Below, piece after piece: positions 52,577 to 62,646 of a stretch of DNA of 64,000 bases. Every line of letters begins with the position of its first letter. Within the stretch, counting starts at the first letter, position 1. The notes beneath the pieces are model-generated. The model saw only the letters and a list, made by a program, of their open reading frames with translations. It ran no database searches and had not been told where the DNA came from. Position numbers and translations under genes: made by a program. Source of the stretch: Candidatus Saccharicenans subterraneus (GTDB lineage Bacteria; Acidobacteriota; Aminicenantia; Aminicenantales; Saccharicenantaceae); the NCBI GenBank assembly GCA_003426165.1, contig QUAH01000007.1, positions 43,276-107,275 on the forward strand, written 5' to 3'.

Positions 52577-54499
52577 TCAGAGGCTGAGGTAGGCCACTAC
52601 TTCCAGATGCCCGGTGTGGGGAAAGAAATCGACCGGCGTTAGCCGGCTGACCTTGTAGCCGCTGTCCACCAGGACTTTCAGGTCGCGGGCCAGGGTGGCC
52701 GGGTTGCAGGAAACGTAAATCAGGGCTGGAATCCTGAGCCCGATAATCTGCTTGAGGCTTCTGGGGCTGAGCCCGGCCCGGGGCGGGTCTATTACCAGCA
52801 GGTCGAAGCTGCCCCGACTGATCTCGGGTAAGGCTTCCTCCACCGAGCTCTCCTGGAACCGGACGTTCTGGACGTGGTTAATGGCCAGGTTCTCGTTGGC
52901 CGTTCTGATGTTGGCCGGGTCCCAGTCCACTCCCACCACCTCGGTCGCGGCCTTGGACAGGCAGATTTCTATGGCGCCCGAGCCGCAGTACAGGCCGAGG
53001 GCGGACTGGGTGCGCAGCCGGCGGGCTTCTTCCTGGATGAGGGCATAGACCATTTCAGCGGCCAGGGGGTTGGTCTGGAAAAAGGAGCCCGGATAAATCC
53101 TGAAGCGGAAACCCTGAAGCATTTCTTCTATGGCTTCCCGGCCGTAGACCAGGTGAGTTTTTTCAAAGGCGACCACGTCGGCAATGCGGTCGTTTTCCAC
53201 CCACCAGAAGCTGGCCAGCTCCGGCACCGCCTCCAGGATGGCCGCCGCGAATTCATCAGCCGGCAATTCAGCCTGGCTGGTGGTGACCAGGAGTAGCATC
53301 AGCTCCCCGGTCCTCTTGCCCTCCCTGATTACCAGGTGGCGGAAAAAACCTTTCTTGGTTTCCAGGTCGAAAACCGGCAGACCGGTCTTGGCAGCCTGGC
53401 GGCTTACGGCCTGGAATATTTTTTCAGTCAGCGGGGTGCTGAGGTGGCAGATTTTAAGGGGGACGACTCTCTTATTGTGGTGTCCCCGGTTGGACCTGGT
53501 TTTTTCTCGCAGGCCCAGGAAGATTTCTCCCCCGGACTGCCCGAATGAGAATTCCATTTTATTACGGTAAAAATACTGGACAGGGGAGGGCAGGATTCGT
53601 TCAATTTCCAGGTAGCGGTAGCTTGAAGGAAAGTGCTGCTTGAAGACTTCAAGCAGGTAGCTTTCCTTCTGGCGCAGTTGCTCGCTGTAAACCAGATCCT
53701 GGAAAGCGCAACCACCGCAGAGGCCGAAATGGGGGCAGGCTGCCTTTTGCCTGGCCGGCCCTGGCGTGATTATCTCCAGAAGCCGGGCCTTGATGGCTGT
53801 TTTGCCCGCAGGCAGGTAAGAGATTTCCACCAGGTCGCCCGGATAGGCTCCCGGGACCTGGAAAGTTTGCCCCTGGCTGCGGGCCAGTCCAGCCGCTTCC
53901 GGGAGAAGAAAACCTGATATCTCCACCCGGGCCTTGGTTTCCTGGAACTTGTTGAACAACCGTCGCAGCAGTCGGACCGGCAGGCCAACCACGTTATTAT
54001 AGTCGCCTTCCAGTTTCTCCAGAAACAGGTCCTTTATTTCCTGGATGGCGTAGGCCCCGGCCTTGTCCTGGTAGGTGTTCCGGTTGAGGTAGGCCCTGAT
54101 ATCTTCAATGGTCAGAGGCTTGAAGGTCACCCGGCTGGTTTCCTGGCCGCTCAACAGCCGGTCTTCCTGCTGGTTGTAAAGAACAACCGCGGTTATCACC
54201 TGGTGGGTCCGGCCGGAAAGCAATCCCAGCATCCGTTCGGCCTCAGCCCGGTCAGAAGGTTTTCCCAGTATCTGGCCGTCTATGGTAACCACGGTGTCGG
54301 CGGCAATCACCAGGGCTTCGGGGTTGGAGGCGGCCACCGCCCGGGCCTTGGCCTCGGCTGCCTTCAGGGCAAAAACCACTGGGTCCTTCTCGGCAATCTG
54401 ATTTTCATCCAGGCCGCTGGGAATAACCAGAAAAGATTTGACTATCCTTTTGAGTAACTTGATTCTTCGTGGAGATTCCGAGGCCAGGATAACCTTCAT
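52577..54499 (-). CDS. Fusion: Maf nucleotide pyrophosphatase + TRAM/4Fe-4S RNA (uracil-5)-methyltransferase RlmD-like
   Basis: N-terminal ILASESPRR, AADTVV, GKP, DKAGAYAIQ, NVVGLP; C-terminal CPHFGLCGGC, YRNKMEF, SFFQTN, LYCGSG, DPPRAGL, YVSCNPATLARD, DFFPHTGHLE, all in one frame. Confidence 0.92.
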   Translation of the reverse strand: MKVILASESPRRIKLLKRIVKSFLVIPSGLDENQIAEKDPVVFALKAAEAKARAVAASNPEALVIAADTVVTIDGQILGKPSDRAEAERMLGLLSGRTHQVITAVVLYNQQEDRLLSGQETSRVTFKPLTIEDIRAYLNRNTYQDKAGAYAIQEIKDLFLEKLEGDYNNVVGLPVRLLRRLFNKFQETKARVEISGFLLPEAAGLARSQGQTFQVPGAYPGDLVEISYLPAGKTAIKARLLEIITPGPARQKAACPHFGLCGGCAFQDLVYSEQLRQKESYLLEVFKQHFPSSYRYLEIERILPSPVQYFYRNKMEFSFGQSGGEIFLGLREKTRSNRGHHNKRVVPLKICHLSTPLTEKIFQAVSRQAAKTGLPVFDLETKKGFFRHLVIREGKRTGELMLLLVTTSQAELPADEFAAAILEAVPELASFWWVENDRIADVVAFEKTHLVYGREAIEEMLQGFRFRIYPGSFFQTNPLAAEMVYALIQEEARRLRTQSALGLYCGSGAIEICLSKAATEVVGVDWDPANIRTANENLAINHVQNVRFQESSVEEALPEISRGSFDLLVIDPPRAGLSPRSLKQIIGLRIPALIYVSCNPATLARDLKVLVDSGYKVSRLTPVDFFPHTGHLEVVAYLSL

Positions 54500-55224: not shown

Positions 55225-56583
55225 GTGTTAAAAATATTACTCATTTCTTCGGATGATGGGGTGGCCAGAGAGATAGCCGGGGCTCTGCCTCCGGGGGCCT
55301 GCCAGCTGACCCTGGCCGGGGTTGAAGAGGACCTGATCGGCCGGATTAACCGGGAAAAACCGCGGGTCATTCTTCTGGTCAGGGAAGGACGGTTGTCTGA
55401 TACTTTTTCCAGGCTCAGAAAGATAAAGAGCCATGACCCGCTGATGGAGGTTATAGTTCTGGGCCAGCCCGAGAGCGAAGCGAGAGTGGCCGAAGTGATC
55501 AAGGCCGGGGCCCTTGATTATCTCCAGCTGCCGCTGCGACCGGAAGCCCTGGCCGAAAGCCTGAAGAAACTGGAAGAGAAAATTGCCGTCCGCCGGGAAA
55601 CCTACCAGCTGGAGAGGGAGCTGGCCAGCAAGTACATCTTTGAGGGAATGGTCGGGCGGCACCCGGCCATGCTGGAGCTCTTTGCCCTGGTGGAGAGGCT
55701 GGCCCGGCATCAAATAACTGTCCTGGTAACCGGCGAAACCGGGACGGGAAAGGAGCTGGTGGCCCGGGCCATTCACAACCTCAGCCCCAGGAAAGACAGG
55801 CCACTGGTGGTGGTTGACTGCACCACTCTACCGGAATCCCTGTTTGAATCCGAGGTGTTCGGGTACGAACGCGGGGCTTTTACCGGTGCCGACCGGGCCA
55901 AGAGCGGGTTGTTGAAGGAGGCCGATGGCGGCACCATATTTTTTGATGAAATCAGCGAAATTCCCCCAGGCAGCCAGGCCAAGCTGCTGAGGTTCCTGTC
56001 GGAAAGAACCTTCAAGCCGCTGGGCAGCAACCGCCCGGTCAGGGTGGATGTCAGGGTTATCTGCGCCACCAACCGGAACCTGAGGGAAGAGGTGAAGAAG
56101 GGGAATTTCCGGGAGGACCTGTATCACCGGATTAACGTGGCCGAGGTGAACCTGCCTCCGCTGAGAAAGCGCAAGGATGACATTCCGCTCCTGTGCCTTC
56201 ATTTTATTGACCGCTACAACCAGCGTTTTGGAAAATCGGTTCGGGGGCTGTCCAACCGGGTCAAGAAAATCCTGTTTGAGTATGATTGGCCCGGTAACAT
56301 CAGGGAACTGGAGAAGGTGATAGAGCGAGGGGTCATGCTGACCACTGATAATTTCATAGATATTCAACACCTGCCCGAAAGGCTGATCAGCCTGGTAGAA
56401 ACAGAGCTCATGGAAGACAAACCCTATCCTTACGTCAACCTATCACTTGATCAGATTGAGAAGAAGCACCTGCTGGAAGTTCTGCGGGCCAACGGGTTTA
56501 ACAAGCAGAAGGCGGCCCGGGTGCTGGGCCTGACCAGGCCGGCCCTGTACCGGAAACTCAAGAAATTCAAATTAAACGTCTGA
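55225..56583 (+). CDS. Sigma-54-dependent enhancer-binding protein with degenerate receiver domain and Fis-type HTH
   Basis: Walker A GETGTGKE, ESEVFGYERGAFTGA, FFDEISE, FREDLYHR, WPGNIREL, HTH KAARVLGLTRPALYRKL. Confidence 0.93.
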   Translation: MLKILLISSDDGVAREIAGALPPGACQLTLAGVEEDLIGRINREKPRVILLVREGRLSDTFSRLRKIKSHDPLMEVIVLGQPESEARVAEVIKAGALDYLQLPLRPEALAESLKKLEEKIAVRRETYQLERELASKYIFEGMVGRHPAMLELFALVERLARHQITVLVTGETGTGKELVARAIHNLSPRKDRPLVVVDCTTLPESLFESEVFGYERGAFTGADRAKSGLLKEADGGTIFFDEISEIPPGSQAKLLRFLSERTFKPLGSNRPVRVDVRVICATNRNLREEVKKGNFREDLYHRINVAEVNLPPLRKRKDDIPLLCLHFIDRYNQRFGKSVRGLSNRVKKILFEYDWPGNIRELEKVIERGVMLTTDNFIDIQHLPERLISLVETELMEDKPYPYVNLSLDQIEKKHLLEVLRANGFNKQKAARVLGLTRPALYRKLKKFKLNV

Positions 56584-56809
56584 CTCCCTGAGAATACCCC
56601 GCTGAATTTCGGGGATAGCAGTCTGCTGATGGCATGACTTCTGTTGCCGGATCAGGCTCATTTTTTTTGCAACCAGGTGCTTCCCGAGAAAAGCTGTTTT
56701 TTTGTTAATGTCTGTCCACATCCCCGATAATCAAAAGGCCAGAGAAATATCTGGCCCGGGCCCGAGTCTAACCGAATGGAGGTTACAATTTCTATGGCCG
56801 TCTTCTATG

Positions 56810-56908
56810 TGTAACGAAAATGAACAGTGGCAGATATTTAATCTATCTTTTTGAATCTCAATAAGATAGGCCCGGCAGCTGTCCAGTTAGGTGTAACAAA
56901 AGCGGACA
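56810..56908 (+). promoter_or_regulatory. Two candidate upstream activator sites (TGT-N11-ACA)
   Basis: TGTAACGAAAATGAACA (56810-56826) and TGTAACAAAAGCGGACA (56892-56908); both begin GTGTAAC and lie upstream of the sigma-54 promoter. Confidence 0.5.
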
Positions 56909-56969
56909 GGAGGCCCGAAAGCTGCCCATCTTAAATTATTGAATATCAATTAGATAACAAAAAATAAGC

Positions 56970-56985
56970 TGGCACATATATTGCT
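56970..56985 (+). promoter_or_regulatory. Sigma-54 (-24/-12) promoter P1
   Basis: TGGCAC-ATATA-TTGCT, near-perfect match with GG-N10-GC spacing, about 40 nt before the 57028 ORF. An IHF-like TAAATTATTGAAT lies at 56932-56944. Confidence 0.85.
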
Positions 56986-57027
56986 TTATTTGTGGTCAAG
57001 AATTAGCGACGAGACTTAAGGCGTAAG

Positions 57028-57537
57028 ATGAACATGAGAAAGGATGATGGAAAAAACTGTTGGCGTAAATTCTTCCTGCTCATAGTAGTAAGTCTATCAT
57101 TCGGGCTTGTTGCCTGGTTGCGGGCCGATACTTCAACCAGGGCCACCTTTTCTTTAGAACTAAAAGAATGGCTGGTCCTGGAAATCAAGTCAGCCCACGA
57201 TGGTTTTTCTGACACGGGTAATTTACAGGCCCTGGGCCAGGCCGAAGTCGTGTTGGGCCAGCCCGTGCAGGTCAGGGCTCTTTTATCGGTCAGCGAGGGT
57301 GACACAATTGCCTTAAAAGGAGTCATTTATTCTGAAGAAGAACCAGAGAACCAGTCCCTTTTGATCTGGAGAGGCCAGGGAGACATTCAAGGAGAAGGGC
57401 TGGTCCTTGTCGGCCAGGAGAACATCTATGCCGTCTGGCAGGGAAACGGCCTGAAGACCGGCAGCCTGGTTTTCCTGGATAGAGAAGGCAACTCTGGCCA
57501 TGTCTTTAAGGCCAGATTTACCCTGAGCGCTTTGTGA
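57028..57537 (+). CDS. Exported pilin-like/WxL-like subunit 1 (divergent)
   Basis: Signal peptide; C-terminal W-x-G-x-G...W-x-G-x-G..G-x-L-x-F...FTLS pattern shared with the three downstream paralogs. Confidence 0.65.
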   Translation: MNMRKDDGKNCWRKFFLLIVVSLSFGLVAWLRADTSTRATFSLELKEWLVLEIKSAHDGFSDTGNLQALGQAEVVLGQPVQVRALLSVSEGDTIALKGVIYSEEEPENQSLLIWRGQGDIQGEGLVLVGQENIYAVWQGNGLKTGSLVFLDREGNSGHVFKARFTLSAL

Positions 57538-57700
57538 AATTTATAAAATAAAATTAAGGAGTTTAATGACAGAAAAAATAGCCTGATGACATAATTTGGC
57601 GCTAAAATCCGGTTTACGCAAAGTTAGTGTTTGGAAGAACATAGCTTTAATTTATTTATTATAAGCAACTTACAATTCTAACGCCCCTTTTCTCTTGACC

Positions 57701-57716
57701 TGGCATAACTCCTGCA
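57701..57716 (+). promoter_or_regulatory. Sigma-54 (-24/-12) promoter P2
   Basis: TGGCAT-AACTC-CTGCA with GG-N10-GC spacing, preceded by an AT-rich tract, directly upstream of subunit 2. Confidence 0.65.
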
Positions 57717-57740
57717 TTATAAAATTGATGATATCTTATA

Positions 57741-58280
57741 ATGTGGGAGGAAATGGAAGTGAAGACGAAGTTTTTTAGGGTGCTGGGTCTTTGGGTAGGT
57801 TTCTTGCTGATTGCGGCTTTCAATCCGCTTCTGGCTCAGCAGTCGCGGGATGTTACCTTCCAGGTTACCCTGGCTGAATGGTACGACCTTTATATCGGCA
57901 CCAACACCGTAACCTTTACCGATGTTGCTCCAACCGTGGGAGCCACACCCGGAACGGTTCAGATAGCGGCCAATGAAAACCCGGTGGCGGTTAGGGTCTT
58001 TGCCATCATGGTTCCTGCTTCTTCTCTTAGCCTGACCGTGACCGCGGCCGGTGATTTCCACTCTACCATTCCCGCCAGCACGGTCAGCTGGACGGTTAGT
58101 GGTACCGGTTACCAGGCCGGTTCGCTGCTGGCCGGCAGCGCGGTCTCGGTCGGACAGTGGACGGGAAGCATTTTCCACTGGCACGAAGGTCAGCTCAACT
58201 TCAGCTTTCTCAGGGATTACGTCAACCAGGAACCGGGTTCGTATTCCATAACGGCCACCTATACTCTTTCCAAGATTTGA
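57741..58280 (+). CDS. Exported pilin-like subunit 2 (probable major subunit)
   Basis: Signal ending LLA-QQ; IPASTVSW...G-x-L...GQW-x-G...G-x-LNFSF...PGSYSITATYTLS; own promoter. The true start may be GTG at 57759. Confidence 0.75.
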   Translation: MWEEMEVKTKFFRVLGLWVGFLLIAAFNPLLAQQSRDVTFQVTLAEWYDLYIGTNTVTFTDVAPTVGATPGTVQIAANENPVAVRVFAIMVPASSLSLTVTAAGDFHSTIPASTVSWTVSGTGYQAGSLLAGSAVSVGQWTGSIFHWHEGQLNFSFLRDYVNQEPGSYSITATYTLSKI

Positions 58281-58420
58281 GTTCAGTTCGCAGACAGCCC
58301 GTCAGGGGGGAGAGATCCGGACTCTCTCCCTTTTATTTTATTGACCAGGAATCAGGCTTTTCATAGAATTGATTCGGGTTTTGGCCAGAACCGGAAATTG
58401 AAGATGCAGGAGGCCATAAG

Positions 58421-59224
58421 ATGAGATGCCGGTTCGGAAGAGCGCTCTGGTTTCTACTGGTTGTCATAGTGATTGCCGGCGGCTTTTTCCCGCTTCAGGC
58501 CCAGATCTATTTCGGTATCACCCCCATCCGGTTTGAGCTCAAGGTGGCTCCGGGTGGTCAGCGGACCGAGGTAATATACGTCAGGAATAATTCGCCCCGG
58601 CCGGTCAGGTTGAAAGTCTATACCGAAAACTGGACGCTGGGTGAAGATGGCAGCCGGCATTTCCTGGGGAATCAACCGACCGGCTTTTCCTGCCGGGACT
58701 GGCTCAGGGTCAATCCCTTTGATTTCCGACTTCAGCCGGGAGAGATGAAAACCGTTCGGTTCACGGTGTCTGTGCCGGCCGAGACTGAAGCCGGTGGCTA
58801 CCATGCCGGAATATCCTTTGAACAGGTGCCGGAAGCGCCCCCGGGTGGTCGGCTGGGCCAGGTGGCCTTTACAGGGAAAATTGTGGCTGCCGTCTATGTG
58901 CTGGTCGGGAAGGTCCAGGTTGAAGGCTCGCTGGAGGACCTGGTTTTCGAAGGTGCCGGCGGCGCCCAATCGCTCAAACTGAAGCTCAACAACCCGGGCC
59001 GAACTCATTTCCGCCTTAAAGGCGAGGTGCGTTTGACCACGGCCGAAGGCAAGAAAGTACAGAGCCTGGATATTCCAGACGAGCCGGTTCTGCCGCAGAG
59101 CGAACGCTGGGTGGCCATCCCGTTGAAAGAGAAACTGACACCTGGAAGCTATAAAGCCGAGGTCAGGCTGGATATCGGCCGGGACGAGCTGCTGGCCCTG
59201 GAGAAAGAGATCATAGTCAAATAA
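58421..59224 (+). CDS. Periplasmic fimbrial chaperone-like protein (PapD_N/DUF916-like)
   Basis: Signal peptide; GITPIRFEL, IYVRNNS, DWLRVNP..FRLQPGEMKTVRFTVSVP...GGYHAGISF; second Ig-like domain LKLNNPGRTHFR...GSYKAEVRLD. Confidence 0.75.
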   Translation: MRCRFGRALWFLLVVIVIAGGFFPLQAQIYFGITPIRFELKVAPGGQRTEVIYVRNNSPRPVRLKVYTENWTLGEDGSRHFLGNQPTGFSCRDWLRVNPFDFRLQPGEMKTVRFTVSVPAETEAGGYHAGISFEQVPEAPPGGRLGQVAFTGKIVAAVYVLVGKVQVEGSLEDLVFEGAGGAQSLKLKLNNPGRTHFRLKGEVRLTTAEGKKVQSLDIPDEPVLPQSERWVAIPLKEKLTPGSYKAEVRLDIGRDELLALEKEIIVK

Positions 59225-59230
59225 TCAAAC

Positions 59231-59785
59231 ATGAATAATATGAGCAGAGCCGAGCTCCAGGTTCGAAAAGAGCAAAGAGTCACCCGGAGACTGGTCTGCT
59301 GTTTCCTGCTGGCCTGGGCCGTCCTGGCCCTGGGACAGCTTCTGGCCCAGAGCACGGCCAGCCTGGGGGTGACGGTTCAGGTGGCCAGGCGCTTCAGGAT
59401 TGAGATAAGCACCAACCAGGTATCTTTCACCCGTAGTTCTTCAACGGGCGTTCCCCAGACCATTCCGGCCAACGAAGGTCGCTTTGACCTGACCGTCAAG
59501 ACCAACAATGATTACAGTTCCAGCACCAGCGTCTGGTTCCAGGTTTCTTCGGACCTGGTGGATAGCGCTACCGGCTACTCCATCCCGGTTGAGAAAATAA
59601 GCTGGCAGGCGCAGGGTAGCGGATTTTATAGCGGGCAGCTGAGCAAATCGGCCCCGGCTCTGGTGGCCAGGTTTACCGGGCCCGGGAGTTTTACCGGGTA
59701 TCTTTATTTCTTTTTCGCCGAAGACCCGAATATGGCGCCGGGAGCCTACCGGACAACGGTCACCATTCTGGTGGAAGGTGTGTGA
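59231..59785 (+). CDS. Exported pilin-like subunit 3
   Basis: Signal peptide; IPVEKISW-x-A-x-GSGFYSGQL...G-x-LYFFF...PGAYRTTVT. Confidence 0.75.
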   Translation: MNNMSRAELQVRKEQRVTRRLVCCFLLAWAVLALGQLLAQSTASLGVTVQVARRFRIEISTNQVSFTRSSSTGVPQTIPANEGRFDLTVKTNNDYSSSTSVWFQVSSDLVDSATGYSIPVEKISWQAQGSGFYSGQLSKSAPALVARFTGPGSFTGYLYFFFAEDPNMAPGAYRTTVTILVEGV

Positions 59786-59791
59786 GCCGAC

Positions 59792-60298
59792 ATGAGATCC
59801 GGGCGTTTGTTTACGGGCAACAGGCTGACCAGGTTTCTGGCCGCTGCCGTGGTCAGCATGGGCCTGCTGCTCATGTCTCCGGTCAGGCTGAGTTCCCGGG
59901 TGGCCCCCCAGCACTGGACCATAACCATCAATATTTTCCCCACGACCATCACCTTTCCGGCGGCCGACCCGGACCTGGAGCCGGTGGTTGCGGCCAACAC
60001 CCCGGTTCACATCCAGGTTACCACCTCGCCGCCCAACCGCCGCTGGGAAGTAACCATCAGGGCCGAGGGCAACCTGGTGAGCGCCAGTGGTCAGGTAATA
60101 CCAATCAGTACCATTTCCTGGAGAGCTTCTCCCAATGACGTTTTTAGAGATGGTGTTCTGGCCGCCGGGCAGAGCCTGGTGCTGGCCCAGGAACGGGGAC
60201 AAAAGGAGGCCGACCTCAGCTTTTATTTCCAGAATTCCTGGGATTACGTGGCCGGGGAATACACTCAGGTCATTACCTTTACCGCTTCCCTGCTTTAA
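59792..60298 (+). CDS. Exported pilin-like subunit 4
   Basis: Signal-like N-terminus; TITFPAADPD, IPISTISW...G-x-L...LSFYFQNSWDYVAGEYTQVITFTAS. Confidence 0.75.
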   Translation: MRSGRLFTGNRLTRFLAAAVVSMGLLLMSPVRLSSRVAPQHWTITINIFPTTITFPAADPDLEPVVAANTPVHIQVTTSPPNRRWEVTIRAEGNLVSASGQVIPISTISWRASPNDVFRDGVLAAGQSLVLAQERGQKEADLSFYFQNSWDYVAGEYTQVITFTASLL

Positions 60299-60312
60299 GT
60301 GGCGGAAGGGAA

Positions 60313-62646
60313 ATGAGTTATAGACAGAAGGTGTGGGCAGCGGAAGGCAGAGAGGGCTTTTCCCTCCTGGCTGATGCCCCCGGCCGCCTCTTCTTATTCT
60401 TATTCCTGTCTGTTCTCTTCTTAATTTCGGACCTGTTTTCCCAGCAAGGTTATATAAACCTGTCCTACTGGAACCGAAGCCGGGTTTATTCTCAGGCCGG
60501 CCCTTTTTATGCCAATGAATACGAAAATATCATGCACCTCGACCTCTGGCAGAAGTTTATTAACTATGGAGTCTTGAGTGGCTGGTTTGACGGCCGCCTG
60601 TCCTCCGCCGGCCTGGAAGCGGCTCACTGGTACCTGGACTGGCAGGGCTTGCAGCTGGGCCGGCTGTCCTGGAAGCTGAGGCTGGGTGACCATAACCTGC
60701 AGTTGACCAACCTGGGCTACCGCTTCACCAATTACTACCCGGCATATAACTACCTGCGGGGAGTGAGCGCCGGCTTCGAGCACAGGAAATTCGGCCTGGA
60801 GGTGTTCAGCGGCAAGGTGGCCAGGCTGACCGGCCTGCTGGGCAATTTTTATTCGCTGACCGAGCAGACGGCCACCGGCTTTATGGGGCGTTTTGAACCT
60901 GATAAAAAGTATTTTCTCGGCTTTGGCTTTGTGCACAGCGAAAACGAGAGGAGCTGGAGCGGCGAACTACTGACCAGGACCAACGATATTCTATTTATAG
61001 AATCAGAACTCCGCTTCAACGAGCGGGCCAGGTTTGTCATGGACACCAGGGCCAGCCTGGCGGCCGGGGAGAACGACCAGGTGAAAATCCCCGGCACCTC
61101 GATCCGCTTTGGCCCCCTGCTTCAGGGGGGACGCTGGTCCCTGGAGGTCAACTACCGTCGGGTGGATGCCGACTTCCGCAACCTCAGCAGCGAGTTCGCC
61201 TACGACCGCGACCAGGAAGGTCTTTTTGCTTCCTGGCGCTATCAGACCCGCCGTCGGGTTTTCATTTTCGGTTCGGTCGATTATTTCCACGATAACGTTG
61301 ACCGGCGTGCCGTCCTTAATACCACCGATTTCTGGCGGCTCAATTCCGGTTTTTCTCTAATCACTCCGCCCTGGCCTGACCTGACCCTGAGGCTGGACCT
61401 CAGTGCGGCTGAATCACGGCATCCGGGAGGGGATTACCGGAAGTTCATAAGCCCGGGCTTTTACCTTCAGCTTTCCAAGAACCTGGGACGTTTCTACCCC
61501 TACCTAAGGGCCCGATTTCAGCACTACGACGACCGGGTGAATGACCAGCGCGATTTCAACTATCCTTCGTTTTACCTGGGGTTGAGGTACAGCTATCTCA
61601 GGAGCGCCTACCTGCTACTGGAGGCCGAAGACAGTCGCTACTACGATTACCTGGAAAATAAACTCTCCGACCTGACCAGGCTGCGGCTGGCCACCTATTC
61701 TCCCTTTTTATTCGGCACCGATTTTTACGGGGAAATCTCTTACCTTGACCTCAAGTCATGGTATTTTGTCAGCCAGTCTTCAAAAAGAACCGAGCTATAC
61801 CTGGGGCTGGGGCGCTGGTTGCCCCTGGGCCTGAGGCTCAGGCTGGACTTCCGGGCCAGCTGGCCGCTTCAATCTGCCCAGCCGGCCAATTACTGGTTAA
61901 CTCTCAGAATAGACCGCCGCTTTAACTGGGGGGAAGTGGCTTCTTACCAGGGCCGGACCACGGGGCCGGTGCTCACCGGCCTGGGCCGGATAGAAGGCCT
62001 GGTTTTCTCCGACCGGAACCTGAACGGGATTTTTGATGCCGGGGACAGGGCTTTTCCCGAAGTGACCTTTTACCTTGAAGACGGCAGCAGCGCCACTTCC
62101 GACAGCCAGGGTCGGTTTGCTTTCAGCCGGGTGCCGGAGGGCCTCCATTCTGTCAACCTGGAGATCAGCCGGATTCCAGCCGAGTATTATCTGGCTGGCC
62201 AGGAACGCCGGGTGCTGGTGGTGGAAAAGCGGAAGTCGGCCAGGCTGGAGTATGTCCTGGTCGAGGGAGCTGGGGTTGCCGGGATAGTCTTTCAGGATGT
62301 CAACAAGAATGGCTTACTGGATGAAGAGGACCAGCCTCTCAAGGACATCCTGGTTGTGGCCAGAGCCACGGATACCGAGAAATGGCCAGAGAGCCTGAGG
62401 CAGTTGCAGGCTGAAGAACTTACCTGCTACAGCGACGGGAAGGGCCGGTTCGTTTTTGAAAACATCCTGCCCGGCCAGTACGAATTATCGGTGGATGAAG
62501 AAACCGTGCCGCGCGGGGTCAAGCTTCAGACCGAGCTGCCACTGAAAGTTGCCCTCAAGCCAGGCGAATCGATAAAAGATATCAGGATTGTCTGCCAGCC
62601 ACGTCCGGTGATCTATACCGGGCGGACCCGGGCGGGTGTGGGCTGA
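60313..62646 (+). CDS. Usher-like outer-membrane beta-barrel with two C-terminal SdrD-B/CnaB-like domains
   Basis: Signal peptide; about 530 aa of alternating aromatic beta-strand pattern; then G-x-VFSDRNLNGIFDAGD and G-x-VFQDVNKNGLLDEED, each followed by SD-x-x-GRF-x-F...GxY/H. Confidence 0.7.
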   Translation: MSYRQKVWAAEGREGFSLLADAPGRLFLFLFLSVLFLISDLFSQQGYINLSYWNRSRVYSQAGPFYANEYENIMHLDLWQKFINYGVLSGWFDGRLSSAGLEAAHWYLDWQGLQLGRLSWKLRLGDHNLQLTNLGYRFTNYYPAYNYLRGVSAGFEHRKFGLEVFSGKVARLTGLLGNFYSLTEQTATGFMGRFEPDKKYFLGFGFVHSENERSWSGELLTRTNDILFIESELRFNERARFVMDTRASLAAGENDQVKIPGTSIRFGPLLQGGRWSLEVNYRRVDADFRNLSSEFAYDRDQEGLFASWRYQTRRRVFIFGSVDYFHDNVDRRAVLNTTDFWRLNSGFSLITPPWPDLTLRLDLSAAESRHPGGDYRKFISPGFYLQLSKNLGRFYPYLRARFQHYDDRVNDQRDFNYPSFYLGLRYSYLRSAYLLLEAEDSRYYDYLENKLSDLTRLRLATYSPFLFGTDFYGEISYLDLKSWYFVSQSSKRTELYLGLGRWLPLGLRLRLDFRASWPLQSAQPANYWLTLRIDRRFNWGEVASYQGRTTGPVLTGLGRIEGLVFSDRNLNGIFDAGDRAFPEVTFYLEDGSSATSDSQGRFAFSRVPEGLHSVNLEISRIPAEYYLAGQERRVLVVEKRKSARLEYVLVEGAGVAGIVFQDVNKNGLLDEEDQPLKDILVVARATDTEKWPESLRQLQAEELTCYSDGKGRFVFENILPGQYELSVDEETVPRGVKLQTELPLKVALKPGESIKDIRIVCQPRPVIYTGRTRAGVG

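Follow-up and report, generated by a model that had tools for sequence, protein, structure and literature searches.

A stretch of 64,000 nucleotides from Candidatus Saccharicenans subterraneus, a member of the Aminicenantia in the phylum Acidobacteriota (contig QUAH01000007.1, positions 43,276 to 107,275; hereafter the window, to which coordinates refer unless another locus is named), carries at 55225-62646 on the + strand seven open reading frames (ORFs) whose best explanation, which we hold with moderate confidence, is a chaperone-usher-like machine for assembling immunoglobulin (Ig)-like subunits into a surface fibre (a pilus or fimbria) by donor-strand complementation/exchange. These ORFs, which encode a sigma-54 activator, four small subunits, a two-domain chaperone-like protein and a 777-aa outer-membrane barrel, are exactly where the first-pass annotation, made from the DNA letters alone, had placed them and constitute the gene set that it had claimed. 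The nearest relatives of every one of the proteins are 'hypothetical proteins' from Candidatus Saccharicenans and from metagenome-assembled genomes (MAGs) of Aminicenantes, and our literature search found no paper describing this family. In textbooks, chaperone-usher pili are a machine of Gram-negative bacteria; nearly all that is known of them comes from Proteobacteria, and three Pfam-recognisable families define them.

The chaperone-like protein (267 aa, 58421..59224, + strand) has a signal peptide and ends right after its second domain, with no C-terminal transmembrane helix. The window protein matches the Pfam family WxLIP_PGBD (PF06030, DUF916) at E 1.1e-4 (22.6 bits, below the 27.3 cutoff) and has no PapD_N or PapD_C match in Pfam; PDB sequence searches with this protein or with the profile of its close relatives returned nothing useful, and JGI labels several homologues 'P pilus assembly chaperone PapD'. 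An exhaustive profile search retrieved 12,396 clusters of this family at E<=1e-3, of which 4,772 pass E<=1e-10 (counted at 50% identity). Most members measure ~260-290 aa, start with a signal peptide and lack a hydrophobic helix at the C-terminus. Many others (e.g. P0138, P0145, P0152 and P0157) are 500-590 aa long and consist of two full two-domain copies in tandem. A profile built from 88 diverse members finds in the PDB the WxL-interacting protein EfmWxLIP1 (9i25, 9i1y) with an E value of 3e-11 over residues 23-262, i.e. over both domains. The same search finds EcpB, a fimbrial chaperone, with an E value of 0.009. In Pfam, WxLIP_PGBD is matched by 33 of the 88, WxLIP_HBD (PF11797) by four and PapD_N also by four (weakly, best E 6.3e-5).

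Profile-profile comparison makes this dual kinship explicit. The family aligns by hhalign with WxLIP proteins (DUF916+DUF3324, from plasmids of Enterococcus, Bacillus, Melissococcus and Lactiplantibacillus) at 98.9% probability (E 1.3e-17, 251 columns), and with a PapD-like profile of eight E. coli chaperones at 92.1% (E 6.4e-7, 151 columns); the alignment of close relatives reaches 78% against the latter over 190 columns, spanning both domains. Controls for the PapD-like match, 20 column shuffles and one reversal, stayed at or below 0.4%, with other beta-sandwich profiles far below the match, and no signal was seen when the close alignment was compared with the single sequences of FimC or EcpB, the broader family alignment and the eight-sequence profile being required. 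Since the family finds both WxLIP and PapD-like proteins, which fail to detect each other (1.3%), it appears from these profiles to be a true intermediate between the two. The description of the protein as a PapD/DUF916-like chaperone with two domains is thus upheld, as a homologue of WxLIP and a remote homologue of PapD. The broader idea that the whole system lies between the chaperone-usher and WxL families applies to the chaperone only, because the subunits show no profile similarity to WxL domains.

The protein looks like a soluble chaperone made of two Ig-like domains, both of which align to WxLIP, where such domains have been predicted as well as solved. Arg37, found in every sequence of the close Aminicenantes alignment (A2) and in many of the wider one (A8), aligns with the position of Arg8 in FimC, and a conserved G(K/R)I(A/V)xxVYV motif aligns near Lys112 and the G1 donor strand of FimC. 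In AlphaFold2 (AF2) models of WxLIP-WxL pairs, a WxLIP strand completes the beta-sandwich of the partner, in parallel orientation (PMC10599100), which by analogy would be the chaperone principle at work. A different machine is conceivable on these grounds, namely a surface-display or anchoring complex, the diderm counterpart of WxL/WxLIP clusters, in which the WxLIP-like protein stably holds the small Ig-like proteins by strand insertion. The barrel would then export or anchor these proteins, for instance as adhesins or lectins, singly or in small complexes, with no serial donor-strand exchange and no polymer. In its favour, the similarity of the chaperone to WxLIP far exceeds that to PapD-like proteins (E 1e-17 vs 6e-7), and WxLIP in WxL clusters is viewed as staying bound to its partner rather than recycling as a chaperone does (PMC10599100); against it, the protein studied here has lost the membrane anchor of WxLIP. 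We consider this alternative unlikely, not least in view of what the subunits look like.

The four subunits are subunit 1 (169 aa, 57028..57537), subunit 2 (179-aa ORF, 57741..58280), subunit 3 (184 aa, 59231..59785) and subunit 4 (168 aa, 59792..60298), all exported and encoded on the + strand. As had been proposed, they are paralogous well above chance, with profile-profile probabilities of 99.4% for subunits 2 and 3, 98.2% for 2 and 4, 97.9% for 3 and 4, and 97.0% (E 1e-10) for 1 and 2. Subunit 1, the most divergent, joins the family mainly through subunit 2 (63.7% with subunit 3, 10.8% with subunit 4), and subunit 4 has a shorter N-terminal region, in which 6-10 residues are deleted from the stretch that joins the N-terminal strand to the first strand of the core. 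The C-terminal pattern IP-x3-(I/V)SW...G-x-L...F-x-F...G-x-Y...T(F/Y)T that had been read from the letters is seen in alignments of subunits 2-4 and, in weaker form, in subunit 1. Among orthologues, subunit 1 is the least conserved (40-82% identity) and subunit 2 the best (51-94%). The subunit 2 ORF opens at ATG 57741 and contains a conserved AGGAGG 8-10 nt before GTG 57759, a start that would give 173 aa and, preceded by GGAGG, is most likely the true one.

The absence of cysteine from the mature subunits, which had also been claimed, is confirmed: C11 of subunit 1 and C23/C24 of subunit 3 fall within signal peptides, and subunits 2 and 4 have no cysteine at all. A few orthologues have a stray single cysteine, with no conserved pair, whereas cysteine is nearly invariant in an alignment of E. 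coli pilins. Type V (lipoprotein) pili, which were considered as a possible match, were rejected because there is no lipobox cysteine.

An AF2 model of mature subunit 3, made with a 59-sequence alignment, has seven strands (mean predicted local distance difference test score, pLDDT, of 89.5; predicted template modelling score, pTM, of 0.81) and shows a pilin-type Ig fold, its best Foldseek matches in the PDB being CfaB (E 2e-4), CS17, FimF, FimA, CsuA/B, CS20, the pilin domain of PapG, FimG and PapA, that is, pilins from four chaperone-usher clades. Mature residues 1-15 (QSTASLGVTVQVARR) are unstructured and lie outside the fold in this monomer model. The corresponding N-terminal segment is conserved as the core is in all four sets of orthologues, with the alternating hydrophobic residues of a beta-strand, which is suggestive of the signature expected of a candidate donor strand. 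These features speak against a mere display complex, in which a free conserved N-terminal strand would serve no purpose: the subunits resemble pilins rather than WxL domains, and four differentially expressed paralogues are typical of heteropolymeric pili. That the subunits might themselves be WxL domains was ruled out (no Pfam WxL match; hhalign 0.9%).

Sequence searches with the subunits are far less generous. In Pfam, the 59 subunit homologues have no recurring family (none is matched by more than two members; best E 0.02), NCBIfam has nothing for the four subunits of the window, and a search of the PDB with the subunit profile gave no match. Several points weigh against a chaperone-usher-like machine, namely that (i) the Foldseek matches to pilins are modest (E 2e-4 to 1e-2, with 8e-3 as the upper end for CfaB, CS17, FimF, FimA, CsuA/B, PapA and FimG; template modelling (TM) scores 0.43-0.55), (ii) generic beta-sandwiches such as AP2 mu2 share the list and (iii) hhalign against 16 E. 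coli pilins yields 1.6%. Subunit 2 taken by itself reaches 39% with these pilins, a weak match limited to the last, C-terminal strand. In two distant loci (L001 3344-4306 and L032 7281-8213), proteins of 310-320 aa with two tandem domains of the subunit family are encoded just upstream of the chaperone gene, and these may be tip/adhesin-like or self-complementing.

The outer-membrane protein (777 aa, 60313..62646, + strand) consists of a signal peptide, a barrel, a linker and two beta-sandwich domains. Its AF2 model (pLDDT 80) bears out the barrel that had been predicted, with ~26 strands at residues 43-539 followed by a low-confidence linker, and adds to the earlier account two C-terminal beta-sandwiches (~558-651 and 653-763) of SdrD_B/CarboxypepD_reg/SpaA-like type, with DxNxNGxxD motifs (Pfam SdrD_B, 6.4e-13). 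The ten best Foldseek matches are all full-length FimD or PapC (E 8e-16 to 3e-12; TM-scores 0.27-0.36), followed by MtrB (2.8e-9), the barrel of FimD alone (9e-8) and then porins. The modelled protein thus resembles an usher in its overall structure, including two sandwiches after the barrel, and it is encoded beside genes for a periplasmic chaperone and for pilin-like subunits.

This likeness has clear limits, which count against the locus encoding a chaperone-usher-like machine. The FimD barrel alone matches no better than MtrB and comes close to porins, so the usher match resides in the overall architecture: since it is strong only at full length, its specific signal is 'large barrel + two sandwiches' and not the barrel body. 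In the model there is no plug (the longest inter-strand loops have ~16 residues) and no N-terminal chaperone-docking domain, the first strand starting at residue 43, straight after the signal peptide. Comparison of the barrel with seven E. coli ushers by hhalign gives 0.13%, and the barrel body has no match to Usher (PF00577), PapC_N or PapC_C in Pfam or NCBIfam at E<=1. The lack of an usher plug and N-terminal domain also speaks for a display complex. To judge from the model, the barrel is usher-like in architecture and genomic role and is not a member of the usher family. No known porin or receptor fits it better than full-length ushers do in Foldseek, and no characterised fimbrial clade fits the locus in comparisons with Pfam, NCBIfam and the E. 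coli usher and pilin profiles, two outcomes on which the originality claimed for this system had been made to depend.

Because structural searches with the barrel also return channels, an uptake system has to be weighed as well, in which the barrel would be a large porin or substrate channel and the other proteins periplasmic or surface binding or accessory proteins unrelated to secretion. Taken alone, the barrel body does resemble porins, TonB-dependent receptors and MtrB to much the same degree as it resembles the FimD barrel. CarboxypepD_reg-type domains are also found on SusC-type transporters, which is in line with such a role. Yet there is no plug or TonB box in the barrel and no transporter, ABC or cytochrome gene in the locus, and the PapD/WxLIP homology of the neighbouring protein and the pilin-like fold of the subunits would be left unexplained. 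An MtrB-like electron conduit, suggested by the 26-strand barrel and by the best TM-score, was ruled out in the absence of cytochromes and cysteines, since mature subunits devoid of cysteine exclude haem c and hence an MtrAB-like arrangement. An uptake system is therefore very improbable.

A donor-strand pilus, the explanation that we prefer, is consistent with how faithfully the genes have stayed together. The survey of synteny that had been called for showed that 13 Aminicenantes loci keep the full order phosphoribosyltransferase (PRTase)-activator-subunit 1-subunit 2-chaperone-subunit 3-subunit 4-barrel-aldehyde:ferredoxin oxidoreductase (AOR), and that the subunit-chaperone-barrel core persists in distant metagenomic lineages, being kept from 93% down to ~30% barrel identity. 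At the near end, one MAG locus (L009) encodes proteins 82-96% identical to those of the window. At the far end, the wider taxonomic spread of the chaperone and barrel module is based on four distant metagenomic loci, in which barrels are ~30% identical (in L002 there is a match by hidden Markov model (HMM) only, E 1e-32). The chaperone gene is immediately upstream of the barrel gene in all four, and homologous subunits are recognisable upstream in three; in L002, two exported proteins are encoded upstream, with no significant match to the subunit profile. A genome scan with the barrel returned Aminicenantes-type MAGs only, the peptide patterns used for it being clade-specific. Individual loci show small departures: in one Saccharicenans lineage a family-2 glycosyltransferase (L005 4064-4780) is encoded between the PRTase gene and the activator, ~2.8 kb separate the activator from subunit 1 in another locus (L016 1789-4631), and in L032 (9066-11398) the barrel gene is split into ORFs of 124 and 612 aa, by a frameshift, as a pseudogene or through an assembly error.

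The locus is thus probably a donor-strand pilus system. Its folds, homologies, synteny and regulatory motifs have been shown here, whereas it is our inference that the subunits polymerise, how the C-terminal domains are oriented and what each subunit does. All six proteins, whose signal peptides are visible in the sequence, would be exported by Sec. In the periplasm, the WxLIP/PapD-type protein would cap the incomplete Ig fold of each subunit with a strand of its first domain, the candidate being the conserved G(K/R)I(A/V)xxVYV segment that aligns with the G1 strand of FimC. Chaperone-subunit complexes might then dock, as usher architecture suggests, on periplasmic C-terminal sandwiches of the 777-aa barrel, where the incoming subunit would displace the chaperone strand with its own conserved N-terminal strand, and the growing fibre would exit through the wide barrel. 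Subunit 2 is likely to be the bulk subunit, because it is the most conserved and its gene lies between a promoter of its own and a terminator. The variable, sigma-54-dependent subunit 1 would be added under certain conditions or replace another subunit, its expression being turned on by the neighbouring activator from the two sites upstream, and subunits 3 and 4, which would be co-transcribed with the machinery, may be minor subunits acting as initiator, tip, adaptor or terminator.

Set against known systems, the gene set is the same as in chaperone-usher pili (Fim/Pap, CFA/I-ECP, Csu), which also have small Ig-like subunits, a two-domain chaperone and a large barrel with sandwich domains. The resemblance extends to each component, with a chaperone remotely homologous to PapD (92%), a subunit fold nearest to CfaB, FimA, FimF, CsuA/B and PapA, and a barrel nearest to FimD and PapC, as well as to the terminator that follows an early subunit gene in fim and pap operons. 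The differences are nevertheless numerous. The locus has no Pfam Usher, PapD_N/C or Fimbrial (PF00419) match, and by profile neither the barrel nor the subunits resemble their E. coli counterparts, the ushers and the pilins. While ushers have 24 strands, with a plug between strands 6 and 7 and an N-terminal domain, the modelled barrel has ~26 strands and neither of these elements, and it ends in SdrD-B/CnaB-type domains that carry Ca-binding-like motifs. Finally, the subunits have no conserved disulfide and the first of them is under sigma-54 control.

The WxL/WxLIP clusters of Bacillota share with the locus a protein homologous across both Ig-like domains, which differs here from WxLIP by the absence of the C-terminal transmembrane helix and of the NQIDKxxxYFDLK insertion. 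Its partners are not WxL domains, there is no LPXTG protein or sortase, and the host is a diderm with a dedicated outer-membrane barrel. A third comparison is offered by the Pam pili of bacteria of the candidate phyla radiation (CPR), which use donor-strand exchange, PapD/FimC-like chaperones and several paralogous pilins, and are recognisable by structure only; their chaperones are membrane-anchored, there is no outer membrane or usher, and their two-domain pilins are reported to be exclusive to CPR (bioRxiv 10.64898/2026.03.03.709456). These pili and the system presented here are both non-proteobacterial, with paralogous pilins or pilin-like subunits and with PapD-like chaperones; the present locus encodes a soluble chaperone and a barrel, where Pam pili have an anchored chaperone and no usher. 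Pam pili show that donor-strand assembly with the help of chaperones is not confined to the classical families, and they illustrate that the design space of donor-strand systems is only now being explored (bioRxiv 10.64898/2026.03.03.709456). Cyanobacterial CT pili were judged from the literature to be a different system.

It is quite possible, and we put it forward tentatively, that the locus represents a separate diderm lineage of donor-strand pili, with a plug-less ~26-strand non-usher barrel bearing CnaB/SdrD-B-type periplasmic domains, and with a soluble WxLIP-type chaperone ancestral to both PapD-like chaperones and anchored WxLIP. If true, WxL clusters and chaperone-usher pili would be the two ends of one ancient strand-complementation superfamily, an evolutionary question made testable by a concrete intermediate that links PapD-like chaperones and Firmicutes WxLIP. 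More generally, our findings suggest that the logic of chaperone, strand complementation and outer-membrane platform operates in deep-branching uncultivated phyla, where it is invisible to sequence annotation, and that an usher-like barrel may work without the plug and N-terminal domain, parts regarded as indispensable for gating and for recruitment. Cysteine-free subunits would suit a periplasm that has no disulfide system for assembly, which is sensible in an anaerobe. Since the chaperone family is so large, many similar loci probably await recognition. In Aminicenantes, which reach high abundance in anoxic sediments and bioreactors, the locus is a candidate organelle for adhesion or aggregation with a defined regulatory switch.

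That switch starts with the activator (452 aa, 55225..56583, + strand), a bona fide sigma-54 enhancer-binding protein as had been recognised, with Pfam matches to Sigma54_activat (E 2.9e-67), AAA_lid_14 and HTH_8, a readable GAFTGA and Walker A motif, and a C-terminal Fis-type helix-turn-helix (HTH). Its match to Response_reg is below cutoff, its NCBIfam matches are all under the equivalog cutoffs, and it adjoins the locus in 12 of the 13 long loci. In the degenerate N-terminal receiver-like domain (55225-55590), nearly all 13 orthologues have V, I, E or K at the position of the phospho-acceptor Asp and L, S, E or Q at that of the conserved Lys, and there is no kinase gene next to the activator. 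As the phospho-acceptor is missing from almost all orthologues, the signal is probably not a phosphorelay, and control by phosphorylation seems unlikely. Like members of the NtrC family with TGT-N-ACA sites, this activator has a GAFTGA AAA+ domain and a Fis-type HTH and goes with a -24/-12 promoter preceded by two palindromic sites; it differs in the lack of the phospho-acceptor Asp and conserved Lys from its receiver and of an adjacent kinase gene.

The likely target lies upstream of subunit 1, where a sigma-54 promoter, TGGCAC-N5-TTGC (56970..56984, + strand), lies 44 bp before the ATG. It is the sole exact match in the window, and YTGGCAY-N5-TTGCW, with a spacer that varies, precedes subunit 1 in all 14 loci aligned. 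Two copies of an imperfect palindrome, TGTAAC-N6-GNACA, form a conserved distal block (56810..56826) and a proximal one (TGTAAC-N6-GGACA, 56892..56908, ~70 bp upstream of the -24 element), both on the + strand, and stand out as islands when 14 orthologous upstream regions are compared, the sequence around them being otherwise impossible to align. An A/T-rich TATCAATNAGATA block comes after each copy, and the conserved stretch that follows the proximal one (TATCAATTAGATAA, 56944-56957, + strand) may be a site for a bending protein. The two palindromes are putative binding sites of the activator and the A/T-rich block a putative bending site. Subunit 1 therefore has what defines a sigma-54 unit: a -24/-12 promoter, a GAFTGA activator and upstream sites.

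The rest of the locus is wired differently. A sigma-70-like promoter (TTGACC-17-TATAAA, 57695..57723, + strand) precedes subunit 2, with TTGAC invariant and the -10 element conserved in the 14-locus alignment, and another (TTGACC-17-TAGAAT, 58341..58369, + strand) precedes the chaperone gene, both of its hexamers being conserved across loci. Between them, directly 3' of subunit 2, an intrinsic-terminator-like hairpin with an 11-12 bp G+C-rich stem and a T-tract (58304..58342, + strand) is kept in 12-13 of 14 loci, where stem sequences differ in a compensating manner (dG -18 to -28 kcal/mol). The annotation had placed the whole operon under its own sigma-54 activator. This holds directly for subunit 1, with possible read-through into subunit 2, but not for subunit 2 or the chaperone-subunit 3-subunit 4-barrel block, which have conserved sigma-70-like promoters of their own. 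Likewise, the tight packing described for the six exported genes applies to the last four (gaps of 6, 6 and 14 bp), but not to the others, which are separated by long gaps containing conserved regulatory elements (445 bp between activator and subunit 1, 203 bp between subunits 1 and 2, and 140 bp between subunit 2 and the chaperone gene). Regulation thus appears to be more complex than that of a simple sigma-54 operon: the machinery and the minor subunits would be expressed from their own promoter, subunit 2 would be made abundantly from a transcript that is terminated, and subunit 1 would be added on demand via sigma-54.

Two further elements were seen in the intergenic regions. At 57701-57715, a sigma-54-like TGGCAT-N5-CTGC with the correct GG/GC spacing (GG-N10-GC) overlaps the spacer of the sigma-70-like promoter of subunit 2; it is kept in closer relatives (~8 of 14 loci) and absent from distant ones, and could be part of a dual promoter or a coincidence. 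Directly after the stop of subunit 1 (57556-57586), AAGGAG is followed by a 6-codon mini-ORF (ATG ACA GAA AAA ATA GCC TGA), which could be a leader peptide, a remnant of translational coupling or part of an RNA element, the AAGGAG(T/G)TTAA block being conserved in most loci.

An Rfam scan of 55-64 kb gave no match, and HMMs of the three families detected no extra copies anywhere in the window. The chaperone, subunit 3 and subunit 4 genes share a common reading frame. The locus is flanked by unrelated housekeeping genes, with AOR downstream and, upstream on the minus strand, the PRTase gene and a gene encoding a fusion of Maf and a methyltransferase. The latter (52577-54499) specifies a 640-aa protein in which a Maf-like nucleotide pyrophosphatase is joined to a TrmA-type RNA (uracil-5) methyltransferase, and the same fusion occurs in the L005 locus.

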